From: Escherichia coli
GTDB taxonomy: Bacteria > Pseudomonadota > Gammaproteobacteria > Enterobacterales > Enterobacteriaceae
NCBI RefSeq assembly: GCF_041886205.1
Contig: NZ_CP169031.1
Strand: one strand, 5' to 3'
DNA: 64,000 bases
The notes under the pieces are model-generated. The model was not told where the DNA came from, did not search any database, and worked only from the letters and a program-made list of their open reading frames with translations. Shown in pieces: positions 13,493 to 17,424 of this stretch. The translations under genes were made by a program, and so were the position numbers. The stretch's first letter is position 1; every line of letters starts with the position of its first letter.

Positions 13493-13509
13493 AAATTTAT
13501 TAGAGCAAA
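13493..13509. promoter_or_regulatory. C1 operator-like site (aaatttattagagcaaa)
   Basis: Match to the asymmetric 17-bp P1 C1 operator consensus ATTGCTCTAATAAATTT (reverse complement), upstream of kilA-repL. Confidence 0.6.
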
Positions 13510-13554
13510 TTTTTCTGACCCGATCCAGATCGGGTTGGACGATCTGCTCAGAAA

Positions 13555-13581
13555 CCTGCCAGTTTGCTGGCAGGTTTTTTT
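13555..13581. terminator. Hairpin with T-run between ant and kilA
   Basis: cctgccag-tttg-ctggcagg followed by ttttttt on the plus strand; a second hairpin lies at 13520-13535. Confidence 0.4.
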
Positions 13582-13587
13582 CTTTTG

Positions 13588-14634
13588 TTAACCTATTGCT
13601 ACTGGTTTTAACAAACCAGCATCAAGTAGCTTGCGAGTTAACCACTGCTGGCCTTTACCCGTTAATTGGGGCGTCAGCCGTATCTGGTAGCCATTTTCAT
13701 CATCCAGCACCACTTCTTTCACCGTGAAATACCCGGCGTTAATGTACTGCTGGCGCGGTACGTTTTTGCGCGCACCAAAAGCCATGAGAATGCCGTTCTG
13801 GCGCAACCATGAGAAAAGGGCGTTTTGCTTAAGTCCAACGACCTTTGCAAAGTTCCCGATCAGGATTCCATTAGCCGCTGATACCCGGTCGGCAAAATCG
13901 ACTTTAGGGGCTGCGGCCACCAGCTGTTGTTCCAACTGCATTTTCTGTTCTGCCAACTCGGCAGCCAGGCGTAGAGCTTCTGGTAATGTTTGGGGGATCG
14001 ATGGGGTAGGGGAGTTTGCCTGCTGCAATTCTTCCAGTTTGTCGATCAGCGAACGGCGGACCGCTTTCGATTCGCGAGCAGCAACGCGCAGGGCTTGTTT
14101 GTATGTCATTACTATAACTACCTGATCCGCTCCACCTTTTTTCTTATCCATAGGGGTTACGAAGATTTCGTAACCCTCCCCATCAAGCTCATCCTTAACT
14201 CTGGCAATGAAATCATTGTTGCGAACTGGTTTTTCGCTACATAATTTCCGTGCCTCATTGACCATCTTTAACAGTGTCAGGCTGTCGATTGTGTCTCCGG
14301 TGTTGGGGATAATATTCACGGCTGGTGCTGGCGTAGCTGACGTAACAGGTGCTGGTTTTTCAACATTCAAATTATTACCGGTCATTCTATGTGCCTCCTT
14401 TCTCATTTCTGCTGCCACTGTTGCGTAACGTAGACGTCCTTGTTCAATCAAATAATCCCTGATCTCGGCTATCAGTAGCCTGTTGATCACAGCCTTATCT
14501 GTTCGGGTATAAAAACGCCTGGTTATCATGAAATAGTTAGCAATTGCGCCGGGGATCTCCCGTGTCGGCATACAGGCAGTATGCAGGGCGATCGCTTCGG
14601 CTATGTCATTACGGGTGACGAGAGGTTTTTTCAT
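13588..14634 (-). CDS. ant1: Antirepressor Ant
   Basis: 348-aa ORF downstream of icd with the ANT/KilA-C C-terminal domain. Confidence 0.75.
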   Translation of the reverse strand: MKKPLVTRNDIAEAIALHTACMPTREIPGAIANYFMITRRFYTRTDKAVINRLLIAEIRDYLIEQGRLRYATVAAEMRKEAHRMTGNNLNVEKPAPVTSATPAPAVNIIPNTGDTIDSLTLLKMVNEARKLCSEKPVRNNDFIARVKDELDGEGYEIFVTPMDKKKGGADQVVIVMTYKQALRVAARESKAVRRSLIDKLEELQQANSPTPSIPQTLPEALRLAAELAEQKMQLEQQLVAAAPKVDFADRVSAANGILIGNFAKVVGLKQNALFSWLRQNGILMAFGARKNVPRQQYINAGYFTVKEVVLDDENGYQIRLTPQLTGKGQQWLTRKLLDAGLLKPVAIG

Positions 14635-14852
14635 AAACCCCCCTGAACGTCGGCAGAGAAGGGGAGGCTCCAGTAACTAAGTGAATTGCGCGAGTTAGTT
14701 GAAAAACGGGCAGTAAAAATGCAGGGGCCATCAGGCAATTGAGAGCGTGCTTCGTCTTCTGTTGCAGCGATAACGAAGTGATAGTGGTGTTTTTTACAGG
14801 AATAGAAACGCCAGATGAATTCTTGGCGTGCGCAAGGATTGGCATTAACCAT
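14631..14852 (-). CDS. icd: Icd (cell division interference protein)
   Basis: 73-aa ORF overlapping the ant start by 4 nt; GAGG RBS 7 nt upstream; immediately downstream of the c4 antisense region. Confidence 0.65.
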   Translation of the reverse strand: MVNANPCARQEFIWRFYSCKKHHYHFVIAATEDEARSQLPDGPCIFTARFSTNSRNSLSYWSLPFSADVQGGL

Positions 14853-14899
14853 AGTTACGGCCTCGTAAGTTGATAAACAACCTGCGACCCGCTGCTAAA

Positions 14900-14990
14900 C
14901 AGGTGGCAGGACGTGACGGGGTTAGCAGACTGGCACTTACGAAACCAGCAGGCCGAAGCCTCCCCATCACGCCCCACCATAATTCGGGCG
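14900..14990 (-). ncRNA. c4: c4-like antisense repressor RNA (approximate bounds)
   Basis: Between a C1 operator-like site (15165) and icd. The transcript would contain cugcuaaccc (14912-14921), complementary to two gguuuagcag target copies, one at 14888-14897 near the icd RBS and one at 15060-15069. Confidence 0.45.
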
Positions 14991-15164
14991 TAACGTGGTT
15001 TACGGACACAAAAATACCGCAATATCGGAAATCTGCGGTTGTCCGCGTAAGTATTCAGGCTGCTAAACCCGGTCGCAGAATTTGCTACGACGGCGGAACT
15101 ATAAGCCTGAACGATTAAAAGGTCAATATGATGCGAAAAGATAGCATTCGCGACTTAAAAATAC

Positions 15165-15181
15165 AAATTTATTAGAGCATT
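15165..15181. promoter_or_regulatory. C1 operator-like site (aaatttattagagcatt)
   Basis: Near-consensus operator at the start of the ImmI operon. Confidence 0.6.
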
Positions 15182-15277
15182 GCTTGTTTAATAAATGCAC
15201 AATTGGATCTAATAACCTCTTTTTTTTAAAGGCGAAAATATGTACCCTAAATGAGTTATAAGGCAGGTGAGGTTATA

Positions 15278-15769
15278 ATGAGAAAACTATTACTACCGTT
15301 ATTATTTATGGCTGGGACTGTTAATGCAGCATCAAGCGTGAAGGAGATTTGTACCGATTATACGAAATACCTTGGGCACGTTTACGGCTTTGCTGTCAGT
15401 CAAGACGAATCCATGCGCAAGAAGTTACTGTCAGATATGAAACGTCTTAAACTTTCTGAAGCGATGGTGCAGCAAGAACTATATAAAGTCGCAACCAACG
15501 AAAATGCTAAATATCAATATTCTCGCCTATTAAATCCCGACGCAAACGAGATCAATCGAAGCACTTTCGATTATATGGTAAAGGCATGCGAAACCGCTCC
15601 TGATTTTGCTATCCCTAGCTGGGGTGTGCTGGTGGCGAGCAATGCCGTTAATAAAGAAGATGTTGGAAGAAATGGCATTGACTCAATAAGAAATGCCCCA
15701 GGAATGCGCCATCAAAACGTACAGGGTACGCTTGAAGAACGAGCCAGGGGGCCGGGTGTAGCCCCATAA
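15278..15769 (+). CDS. Secreted hypothetical protein (Sec signal peptide)
   Basis: Start MRKLLLPLLFMAGTVNA with an AxA cleavage motif; 2 Cys in the mature part; the C-terminus shares a GMR..VQGTLEERARG motif with Sit. AT-rich gene. Confidence 0.55.
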   Translation: MRKLLLPLLFMAGTVNAASSVKEICTDYTKYLGHVYGFAVSQDESMRKKLLSDMKRLKLSEAMVQQELYKVATNENAKYQYSRLLNPDANEINRSTFDYMVKACETAPDFAIPSWGVLVASNAVNKEDVGRNGIDSIRNAPGMRHQNVQGTLEERARGPGVAP

Positions 15770-15857
15770 TTTTATAAATAATATTAAATTCTCTGGGCAT
15801 AGTGGATCTAACAATATGGACTATGCCTATAATATCTAAAAACAAAAGGATAAAAAT

Positions 15858-16364
15858 ATGAAATTGTATAAGTCATTGTATAGCTTTTTATTAATGTCCT
15901 CTTTTCTGCCATTATCAGCAATGGCAGGTTCTACCGTTTGGACGGTAGGAGGTGAGCAAGGGTGGAGAGAAATCTCTGCAACCAATGACGATGGTTACAC
16001 AATTAACTTTTCTTGTGATGCTGGAGCAAGGGAAGGTTCAGAAGATCATATCGCTGGAAGAAATTTGTATGTAAGCGGAGGAAAAGAGAATGCCGATTTT
16101 TCTACACGCGACACAATATCACGTAAAGCAGATGTAATTACTTTAATTGTTGGCCCGGATAGTTTTAATATTGGCACGCAAAACACTGCTCCTAATCGTA
16201 GGGAATGGTATTCATTTTGGAAGGCAGTGTCATCTACAAATGAAAAAAACATAGATGTATATATCGGTTCGAGTCGAATCACATCATTCACTCTGGATGG
16301 TATTTCCAGTATTTATACAGAAGCTAAAAATGACGGGTGTTTAAAACAAGATGACGGTGAATAA
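15858..16364 (+). CDS. Secreted hypothetical protein (Sec signal peptide)
   Basis: N-terminus MKLYKSLYSFLLMSSFLPLSAMA; 168 aa; AT-rich; overlaps the next gene by 14 nt. Confidence 0.55.
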   Translation: MKLYKSLYSFLLMSSFLPLSAMAGSTVWTVGGEQGWREISATNDDGYTINFSCDAGAREGSEDHIAGRNLYVSGGKENADFSTRDTISRKADVITLIVGPDSFNIGTQNTAPNRREWYSFWKAVSSTNEKNIDVYIGSSRITSFTLDGISSIYTEAKNDGCLKQDDGE

Positions 16365-17424
16365 AGTGAAGGATATTAAACACATTTCGCTTAACTCTAA
16401 TAATAAAGCTGAAGGCACTGCCTTTTATGATTATTTAAATGAAATTAAAGGAGTGAGGCATAAAAAGATAAGTGGTTTATTAAATTCAGAATATATTTAC
16501 AAGAGTTTAGTTAAACAGTTTGGAACAGTTAAAAAACAAGAATTAATTAATGATTGTTTTCGAAAAGAACTTGAGTCTTTACCAAAAGTTACGAGAATTG
16601 CACACCAGTTTCGTGAACAAATGGTATTTTTACAGAAACAGTATCAGGCGGCTTTTCCCAGTGATGCAAATGAGCATATTCAAATAATTAAAAATCAAGC
16701 TGAAATGGCTATGCCGTTACGAAAACACTCAGAAGCCATTAATAAGATAGCTGGCTTAAATAATATGGAGGAGGTATTTAAAGAATTACACTCTAATATA
16801 AATTACAAAATTAAGATAAGCAAAGATATTAAAGAAATAATAAAGCAGTATAATAAAACAAGAAGTGTATTATTAGAGCAAGTAGTAGAGCTTGGGCTTG
16901 TTACTATCGCGCAGGCTTATGCTAATGATTCTATAAAATCAGCGCATACCGAAAGTGAGCATCAAAACAAAGGATTTAATAAATCTAGTTCGACGTTTTT
17001 TGATTCATTTAAGGCGCTTCCTTCTCCTATTCAGATCTTCCTTCTGTGGATTTTTTATCAAGTGGTGCTTGGCGCTATAACTGATTATGCAAAAGAAAAG
17101 ACATTATCGCAAATTTACAAGATGGAATCATATCTTCTATCTCTAAATGAGGATAAGCCAATATCTAAGCAAAAGCTAACACAAGAAAATAAAGATATTC
17201 AGTGGGAGGATCTTAATAATTTTAGAGCTATAACAGGTGATAACGTAAGGTTGCATGTCGGCCCTTCTTTAAATAGTGAAGTGATTGAATGCATTGGCAA
17301 AAACACAATTGTTGCTATTTTAGATAAGAAAGATCGTCAATGGCTTTACGTGCAGGTTAAATCAGGGGATGAGTTTATTACTGGTTGGATTACACGAACA
17401 TACACAAAGCCTCTTAAGGCTTGA
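16351..17424 (+). CDS. Membrane protein with C-terminal SH3b-like domain
   Basis: 357 aa; predicted single TM helix (IQIFLLWIFYQVVLGAI); C-terminal RLHVGPSLNSEVI...GWITRTY resembles bacterial SH3b. Lys/Asn-rich, AT-rich codon usage. Confidence 0.55.
   Translation: MTVNKVKDIKHISLNSNNKAEGTAFYDYLNEIKGVRHKKISGLLNSEYIYKSLVKQFGTVKKQELINDCFRKELESLPKVTRIAHQFREQMVFLQKQYQAAFPSDANEHIQIIKNQAEMAMPLRKHSEAINKIAGLNNMEEVFKELHSNINYKIKISKDIKEIIKQYNKTRSVLLEQVVELGLVTIAQAYANDSIKSAHTESEHQNKGFNKSSSTFFDSFKALPSPIQIFLLWIFYQVVLGAITDYAKEKTLSQIYKMESYLLSLNEDKPISKQKLTQENKDIQWEDLNNFRAITGDNVRLHVGPSLNSEVIECIGKNTIVAILDKKDRQWLYVQVKSGDEFITGWITRTYTKPLKA

Follow-up and report, generated by a model that had tools for sequence, protein, structure and literature searches.

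What occupies the 330 nt of non-coding DNA upstream of icd in the 64 kb stretch of DNA that we analysed (the window), and which immunity specificity would it confer? The c4 RNA of phage P1 (Citron and Schuster 1990, cited via PMC12197685) acts as an antisense RNA on the ant mRNA, with its target around the ribosome-binding site, and it underlies the heteroimmunity of P1 and P7 (PMC12197685, PMC8198154). It has been also established that full repression of ant requires both C1 and C4 (PMC8198154) and that the C4 precursor is a substrate of RNase P (PMC11143913, citing Hartmann et al. 1995). A sequence-only reading of the window had proposed for the region upstream of icd the architecture of the P1 ImmI c4 system, including target sites and a C1 operator. 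Our analysis bears this out, and we conclude that the region at 14853-15185 on the minus strand almost certainly controls the immI operon of a P1-like (IncY) plasmid prophage. The annotation of the window at this point is settled: the non-coding DNA upstream of icd consists of the c4 RNA gene and four target sites. The system is a textbook one in an element that had already been sequenced, and the textbook c4 feature is real; what is new here is its exact annotation, the assignment of its recognition elements to a P7 type (a) and a D6 type (b), and the many co-varying recognition alleles found in the family.

Identification of the immI control region

When we scanned positions 13500-16500 and then all 64 kb against Rfam, two matches above the gathering score were obtained, and they were the only ones in the whole window. 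The first is C4 antisense RNA (RF01695), which matches 14899-14984 on the minus strand over the full model (1-87) and scores 70.8 bits, where the gathering score is 45. The second is c4-a1b1 (RF03163), which matches 15052-15104 on the same strand and scores 56.2 bits (E = 7e-13; gathering score 46.7). In megablast comparisons with phage records, the DNA of P1 and P7 showed about 95% identity to the region, and that of Salmonella phage SJ46 was 100% identical to the window from 15179 downward. IncY plasmids of E. coli (e.g. NZ_CP049847.1, pEcoUTI1e) matched over 801 nt at 100% identity. In the RefSeq and GenBank records that we examined for these identical IncY plasmids and for SJ46, c4 and its sites carry no annotation. 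The plasmid pEcoUTI1e is 90 kb long and non-mobilizable.

The positions of the individual parts were taken from the annotation of the P1 record AF234172, from the alignment of the window with P1, P7 and SJ46, and from exact string searches. All of the annotated P1 features could be mapped onto the window by alignment, namely Oc4, P2c4, P1c4, a1, b1, c4, a2, b2, icd and ant1/ant2. The head of the immI operon on the minus strand thereby reads in the order C1 operator, two promoters, a1/b1, the 77-nt c4, a2/b2, icd and ant1/ant2. The arrangement that defines the C4 family is found in full: the C1 operator and the P51a and P51b promoters lie upstream, followed by an a1/b1 module that matches RF03163 and whose a1 and b1 co-vary with a' and b'; the a2 and b2 sites lie downstream of c4 on the same transcript, with b2 over the icd ribosome-binding site; and the downstream icd is coupled to ant1/ant2. 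Icd itself is identical to P1 Icd at 70 of 73 residues (96%). The Rfam scores, the mapped P1 features and the closeness of Icd together support the P1 ImmI architecture that had been proposed.

Operator, promoters and leader

The C1 repressor operator Oc4 (formerly Op51) is located at 15165-15181 on the minus strand, exactly where an operator-like site had been noticed before, and its sequence, AATGCTCTAATAAATTT, is an exact match to the annotated protein_bind feature of P1. The promoter P2c4 (formerly P51a) extends over 15138-15167 on the minus strand, with a -35 element at 15161-15167 that overlaps the operator and a -10 element, TATCTT, at 15138-15143. It was placed by transferring the P1 annotation onto a stretch that is invariant in the alignment, and its function is assigned by homology. 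The promoter P1c4 (formerly P51b) follows at 15098-15126 on the minus strand, with TTGACC, a 17-nt spacer and TATAGT; besides being annotated in P1, it was recovered independently by a consensus scan with 10 of 12 matches.

The leader module c4-a1b1 (15052-15104, minus strand; RF03163) consists of two hairpins in succession, the second of which is small and presents a1. The a1 site, TTAGCAG, is a P7-type a allele complementary to a' and lies at 15060-15066 on the minus strand. The upstream copy GGTTTAGCAG that had been described was found by string search exactly at the position claimed for it, 15060-15069. The b1 site at 15045-15052 on the minus strand reads ACTTACGc (ACTTACGC), and its first 7 nt are complementary to b'; both sites were located by alignment and string search. 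Between b1 and c4 we observed a weak terminator-like hairpin with a U-rich run (15006-15039, hairpin at 15016-15039, minus strand), which we list as a candidate terminator. The hairpin folds at -8.5 kcal/mol (z = -1.3), and the terminator scan of 14500-15400 called no terminator, this hairpin included. The leader also gave a match to the Rfam family isrK (RF01394, an Hfq-binding RNA) at 15010-15091, but we kept it out of that family since the score of 47.9 bits is below the gathering score of 50.

This likeness to isrK raises an alternative view of the leader, in which a1/b1 would be freed as a short IsrK-like decoy RNA ending at 15006-15039, which would titrate c4 and tune the switch; a1/b1 would then do more than serve as passive copies of the target. 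In the Gifsy-1 prophage of Salmonella, IsrK and STnc1160 (RF01394; PMC4825925) show the same a1b1-like leader with a terminator-like hairpin, and, as in the window, a processed c4-like RNA comes after the leader and is followed by a short ORF coupled to a downstream gene. There, IsrK is a short terminated RNA whose target in trans is the read-through transcript, and STnc1160, the c4-like RNA further downstream, is complementary to IsrK (PMC4825925). The sub-threshold match in the window includes the terminator stem. The a1 and b1 sites co-vary perfectly with c4, and their pairing is therefore under selection; however, such selection fits a role in precursor folding or processing equally well. 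The Gifsy-1 short RNA activates translation of the read-through transcript, whereas c4 of P1 and P7 represses, and the downstream genes differ. Given that the leader hairpin is weak, that the terminator scan did not call it, and that the P1 annotation has no terminator at this position, we consider a decoy function rather unlikely. The CI RNA of satellite phage P4 (seqA/seqC, PMC4825925) is, by its description, also comparable, in that a processed immunity RNA pairs with complementary sites on either side of it in its own transcript and thereby brings about premature termination; the likeness is one of mechanism, and no sequence or family kinship is claimed.

c4 RNA and its target sites

The c4 antisense RNA is 77 nt long and extends over 14902-14978 on the minus strand. 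It was mapped by alignment with the misc_RNA of P1, and its ends are those expected from the annotated mature P1 C4. The minimum-free-energy fold of the 77 nt has -45.7 kcal/mol (z = -5.2) and shows a 17-bp closing stem and two hairpins. In this predicted fold, nucleotides 51-57 are unpaired and are exactly a', and the loop of the second hairpin (nucleotides 36-44, 9 nt) contains b', so that the long closing stem, the two hairpins, the b' loop and the a' junction of the C4 family are all present. The internal helices of c4 are invariant in the close relatives examined, and their support is confined to the Rfam model and the fold energy.

The recognition element a', CUGCUAA, occupies the 7-nt unpaired junction at 14922-14928 on the minus strand and is of P7 type. 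The recognition element b', UCGUAAGU, occupies the 9-nt loop at 14935-14942 on the same strand; both were placed by string search and by the fold. Their downstream partners were located by alignment and string search. The a2 target site, TTAGCAG, lies at 14892-14898 on the minus strand, 4 nt downstream of the 3' end of c4, and the b2 target site, ACTTACGA, lies at 14863-14870 and overlaps the icd Shine-Dalgarno sequence GAGG (14861-14864), which sits 8 nt before the icd ATG (14852).

An antisense element with two sense copies on the minus strand had been described in the sequence-only reading, and such elements do exist, but the antisense element and the downstream copy have to be moved. First, the antisense CTGCTAACCC is at 14919-14928 and not at 14912-14921, a shift of 7 nt; the latter interval reads CCCCGTCACG. 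Second, a second exact GGTTTAGCAG had been placed at 14888-14897, which is 3 nt off a2; the real copy there is tGTTTAGCAG, and the match is the 9-nt GTTTAGCAG at 14892-14900. Third, the 10-nt pairing had been said to contain one G-U pair, whereas it contains a C·U mismatch, and the perfect core is 7 bp (CUGCUAA with UUAGCAG). Finally, an overlap with the icd ribosome-binding site had been claimed for the described motif. No such overlap exists for the a2 copy, whose end is 27 nt upstream of GAGG, and it is b2, paired with b', that covers the ribosome-binding site. The b set (b', b1 and b2) was absent from that reading, and it is the set that separates the window from both P1 and P7.

Downstream genes and proposed mechanism

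The icd gene (14631-14852, minus strand) was taken from the ORF list; it encodes a cell-division inhibitor of 73 aa and matches phrog_1426. The stop codon of icd and the start codon of ant1 share 4 nt (ATGA). The ant1 gene (13588-14634, minus strand) encodes an antirepressor of 348 aa, with matches to Pfam ANT/KilAC (6e-31) and to phrog_63, anti-repressor Ant (4e-104). The in-frame start of ant2 is expected at 14385 (Met84 of ant1, minus strand) from the 249-nt offset annotated in P1 and P7. Further down on the minus strand there are a KilA-N/ANT protein of 266 aa and then a protein of 281 aa at the place that RepL has in P1. Both the ANT and the KilA domain were confirmed with Pfam and PHROGs, and the gene order of the window equals the P1 order c4-icd-ant1/2-kilA-repL.

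With these parts, the mechanism proposed for the window element would run as follows. Transcription would start at P1c4, and also at P2c4, whose -35 element overlaps the C1 operator, and would give a single transcript in the order a1/b1, c4, a2/b2, icd and ant1/ant2. The 77-nt c4 would be excised from this transcript, with a 5' end produced by RNase P as in P1 and P7. Exposed a' in its unpaired junction would then pair with a2, and b' in its hairpin loop would pair with b2 on the icd Shine-Dalgarno sequence. Translation of icd would be blocked, and the translationally coupled ant1/ant2 would remain unexpressed; in P1, the block of ant is exerted through premature Rho-dependent termination. Biere, Citron and Schuster are said to have described in 1992 that the block of icd translation leads to Rho-dependent termination before ant. 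With the expression of ant1/ant2 prevented, C1 would stay active, and the prophage would therefore be dormant and immune.

The anatomy of the window fits each step of this scheme, with a predicted single transcript, a' and b' exposed in the predicted fold, b2 on the Shine-Dalgarno sequence, and icd coupled to ant1. What the analysis itself shows is that the element belongs to the family, has the corresponding anatomy, exposes a' and b' in the predicted fold, and has recognition elements that each co-vary with their two target sites, whereas processing, translational block, termination and the immunity phenotype are expected by analogy with the work on P1 and P7. We thus regard c4 production, its maturation by RNase P to 77 nt and the repression of Ant in the window element as predicted.

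Comparison with P1, P7, SJ46 and D6

In order to classify the immunity specificity, alignment with P1 and P7 had been suggested in the sequence-only reading. That reading had also named the absence of the complementary elements from P1 and P7 as an argument against itself, and they are present in both. The classification gives a hybrid: the a set is of P7 type, and the b set belongs to neither P1 nor P7 but is that of D6 and SJ46.

P1 (AF234172) has the same operator, both promoters, the 77-nt RNA, the same order of sites and the icd-ant1/ant2 genes, and its flank upstream of the operator matches the window. Both of its recognition sets differ, however, since its a' is CUGUCAA (sites TTGACAG) and its b' is UCACUAAC (sites GTTAGTG); the window is thus not of the P1 type in either set. 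P7 (AF503408, misc_RNA c4) shares the architecture as well, with DNA that is about 95% identical, c4 stems identical to those of the window and an identical a'/a1/a2 set (CUGCUAA / TTAGCAG). Its b set is different: UCACAAUC / GATTGTG in P7 stands against UCGUAAGU / ACTTACG in the window, and 4 of 8 positions differ at all three sites. Upstream of the operator the window carries P1-like sequence, whereas P7 and SJ46 have a lipoprotein gene there.

The whole c4-icd region is 100% identical in SJ46 (KU760857) and in the IncY plasmids NZ_CP049847.1 and NZ_CP103741.1, which have the same a/b haplotype; SJ46 has no differences in the RNA module and departs from the window in the sequence upstream of 15179. 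The b set of the window is also found in phage D6 (MF356679), with b' UCGUAAGU, b1 ACTTACGC and b2 ACTTACGA, but the a set of D6 is of P1 type (CUGUCAA / TTGACAG), unlike that of the window. In D6 the module adjoins repL and controls icd and a Roi-like antirepressor. Based on these comparisons, the window element carries a P7 a allele and a D6/SJ46 b allele, and its specificity type appears to be distinct from those of P1 and P7.

Here, we need to consider that the element could simply have the immunity specificity of P7, with a shared a'/a1/a2 set and with functionally silent differences in b. The identity of the a elements is consistent with this, and so is one direction of cross-pairing. 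When we judged cross-pairing by in-register pair counts, having set aside duplex energies with flanks because these were inflated by artificial flank pairing, b' of the window retained 4 Watson-Crick and 3 G·U pairs with b2 of P7, with a single mismatch. On the other hand, b' of P7 has 4 mismatches out of 8 with b2 of the window, and it is b2 that lies over the ribosome-binding site. Moreover, P1 and P7 are heteroimmune (PMC12197685, PMC6906374) though they differ at no more than 2 positions in each of the two sets. Finally, all three b sites differ from those of P7 in concert, at 4 of 8 positions, which is expected only if b pairing is selected. We judge a plain P7 specificity to be improbable. 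Without a role for b pairing, the joint change at all three b sites would be difficult to account for, and we therefore favour an immunity specificity distinct from that of P7 and regard it as probable. Pairing may also be asymmetric between alleles: c4 of the window with a ACTTGTGA target gives 6 Watson-Crick and 2 G·U pairs and no mismatch, while the reverse combination gives 2 mismatches.

Covariation of the recognition elements

The motifs are short, and we considered whether they are chance matches, or repeats that bind a protein at the DNA level, rather than sites of RNA-RNA pairing. TTAGCAG occurs 9 times on both strands of the 64 kb window and is not enriched overall. When we shuffled 14853-15185 5,000 times with its dinucleotides preserved, a single 7-mer with its complement on either side appeared in 2.6% of the shuffles, which leaves some room for chance if a single set is considered. 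Two separate flanked 7-mer sets in the order observed appeared in only 0.04%. In addition, each central copy reads as the reverse complement of the outer ones, and in the structured RNA, which Rfam C4 matches, it is exactly the unpaired parts that hold these central copies.

Covariation was measured in an alignment of 35 distinct 243-nt haplotypes, in which variation is concentrated in the a and b elements, with hardly any change elsewhere in the 243 nt. Between b' and b2, double changes were seen in 6 of 8 pairs, with 99.6% of the cells paired. Pairing was complete (100% of the cells) for the other three combinations, with double changes in 6 of 7 pairs between b' and b1 and in 2 of 7 pairs each between a' and a2 and between a' and a1. 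In controls slid by 1-3 columns only 26-52% of the cells were paired, and the observed covariation score was reached by none of 500 shuffles. The central copies thus co-vary with both outer copies at 99.6-100% pairing, in a set that includes at least 7 alleles of b and 2 of a. As judged by this comparison across relatives, covariation settles the question against chance, and an origin of the motifs by chance or as protein-binding repeats, refuted in practice, is left with next to no probability. The historical view that c4 is a small protein repressor, reflected in the old GenBank record X15639, which annotates c4 as a CDS, and formally allowed by ORFs of 54 and 55 aa that span the region (14845-15009 and 14855-15022), is practically excluded, since it was already refuted in P1 and P7, where c4 is established as an RNA (PMC12197685, PMC8546580), and since the region gives a strong covariance-model match and its allelic changes, in two blocks of 7-8 nt, are mirrored by complementary ones in non-coding sites on both sides, which fits RNA pairing and not a protein.

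Survey of recognition alleles

When we scanned IMG/VR with an invariant 20-mer of c4, 118 loci were obtained, and with the window, P1, P7 and SJ46 the survey comprised 122 loci. Two a' alleles were present, the P7 type in 74 loci and the P1 type in 47. For b' there were at least 7 alleles: UCACAAUC in 33 loci, UCACUAAC in 30, UCGUAAGU in 23, UCAUGUAC in 18, UCAUUCGU in 14, UCACAAGU in 2 and UCUUGAAC in 1. These alleles form 12 a x b combinations among the 122 loci, and the haplotype of the window is the second commonest (20 of 122). In all readable loci except one (L032), both a1 and a2 read as the reverse complement of a', and b1 (7 nt) and b2 (8 nt) are that of b'.

In the exceptional locus, b2 does not match its own b', and we considered a natural escape recombinant as its origin. 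This locus and another one (L031) belong to a single draft genome, and their two contigs break off at one shared point, 127 nt upstream of the c4 seed; we rejected the candidate, as an assembly chimera is at least as likely. We also compared modules that reside in the same genome. None of the 29 co-resident pairs, from 13 genomes, had identical haplotypes, a count that we take as suggestive only since draft assemblies collapse identical copies and since the pairs are non-independent.

Based on these observations, we tentatively suggest that c4 of the P1 family could constitute a combinatorial two-key RNA immunity code, with 2 a alleles, at least 7 b alleles, at least 12 combinations and matching at three sites, in which the type of the window would be orthogonal to those of P1 and P7 and modules that share a cell would always differ; we consider this broader proposal less likely to be right than wrong. 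In the literature that we searched, only the specificities of P1 and P7 were found, and the allele diversity may have been described elsewhere. Within the module, strong variability is confined to the recognition sequences. Provided that the combinations are orthogonal, one could predict from them which P1-like phage-plasmids, many of which carry resistance genes, superinfect or coexist, and the alleles would represent a natural set of short, matched pairs of RNA regulator and target.

Finally, among 5,426 complete E. coli genomes the 243-nt module was present in 536 (about 10%), almost always on plasmids, and 125 records of these complete genomes carry it with at least 99% identity to the version in the window.

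Allelic diversity of the c4 recognition elements

When we compared the IMG/VR loci L004-L121 with the window (14843-15085), the recognition elements of the c4 antisense RNA were found to be both hypervariable and combinatorial. Two a alleles and at least seven b alleles occur in 12 combinations among P1-like elements, and the other ~220 nt of the module, outside the a and b elements, are almost without variation. Within the modules, the spacing is 6 nt between the b' and a' elements of the RNA, 7 nt between the upstream target sites a1 and b1, and 21 nt between the downstream sites a2 and b2. Since the a and b sites lie just 6-21 nt apart, reassortment of a against b would take either six matched mutations or three separate crossovers, each confined to one of the short intervals.

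The bases directly 5' of b2 (window 14871-14885; columns 206-219 of the haplotype alignment) also vary by allele group, with T(T/A)TCA in the window, D6 and the ACAAGT type, and AAACCT in P1 and P7. Both versions can pair with the invariant AGGUUG, so that a small hairpin is kept (AGGUUG/CAACUU versus AGGUU/AACCU); the window's hairpin covers part of the start of b2.

Two more remote c4-like modules from IMG/VR, L008 and L121, do not sit in the P1 icd context and are followed by different ORFs. Each has a and b sets of its own, matched within the module. L008 has an a' of CGACUAA with matching TTAGTCG sites, and L121 has a b' of UCUUGAAC with matching GTTCAAG sites.

Co-resident modules and a mismatched locus

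We then considered c4 modules that share a cell. Thirteen isolate genomes carry more than one module (L019/20, L031/32, L035/36, L039/40, L046/47, L060-63, L067-69, L071/72, L089/90, L094-96, L099/100, L109-111 and L114-117). In some cases two to four modules lie on one contig, and L099 and L100 are separated by ~2 kb in opposite orientation. None of the 29 co-resident pairs has an identical a/b haplotype, compared with the 11.8% sharing expected for random c4 pairs, a difference that may be biased if identical copies collapse in draft assemblies. The UCAUGUAC b allele is frequently found as the second module.

Only one locus in the c4 survey, L032 (IMGVR_UViG_2565956613_000015), has a b2 that does not match its own b' and b1: its b2 is GTTAGTGA, of P1 type, and its b' is UCAUUCGU. 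L032 and L031 come from one genome, and both contigs stop at the identical point of the conserved leader. L032 may be a natural recombinant no longer subject to its own c4, or else a chimera of the two loci produced during assembly.

Leader and genes flanking the c4 region

Between the promoters and c4, the window leader (15006-15091, minus strand) resembles IsrK, an sRNA of the Salmonella prophage Gifsy-1, scoring 47.9 bits where the gathering score is 50. A weak hairpin followed by a U run falls inside this match, and the P1 annotation marks no terminator there.

Divergent from the operator, three plus-strand genes (15251-17424) encoding 172, 168 and 357 aa fill the position of the P1 superimmunity genes simABC, from which they differ in size. 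Alignment of the first gene with P1 simA is limited to its initial ~50 nt. The window is therefore a mosaic, resembling P1 directly upstream of the operator and SJ46 on its downstream side. The three products are labelled hypothetical in RefSeq and match phrog_3933, phrog_3429 and phrog_7086, uninformative families whose function is unknown, and the 357-aa third product carries a C-terminal SH3_3 domain.
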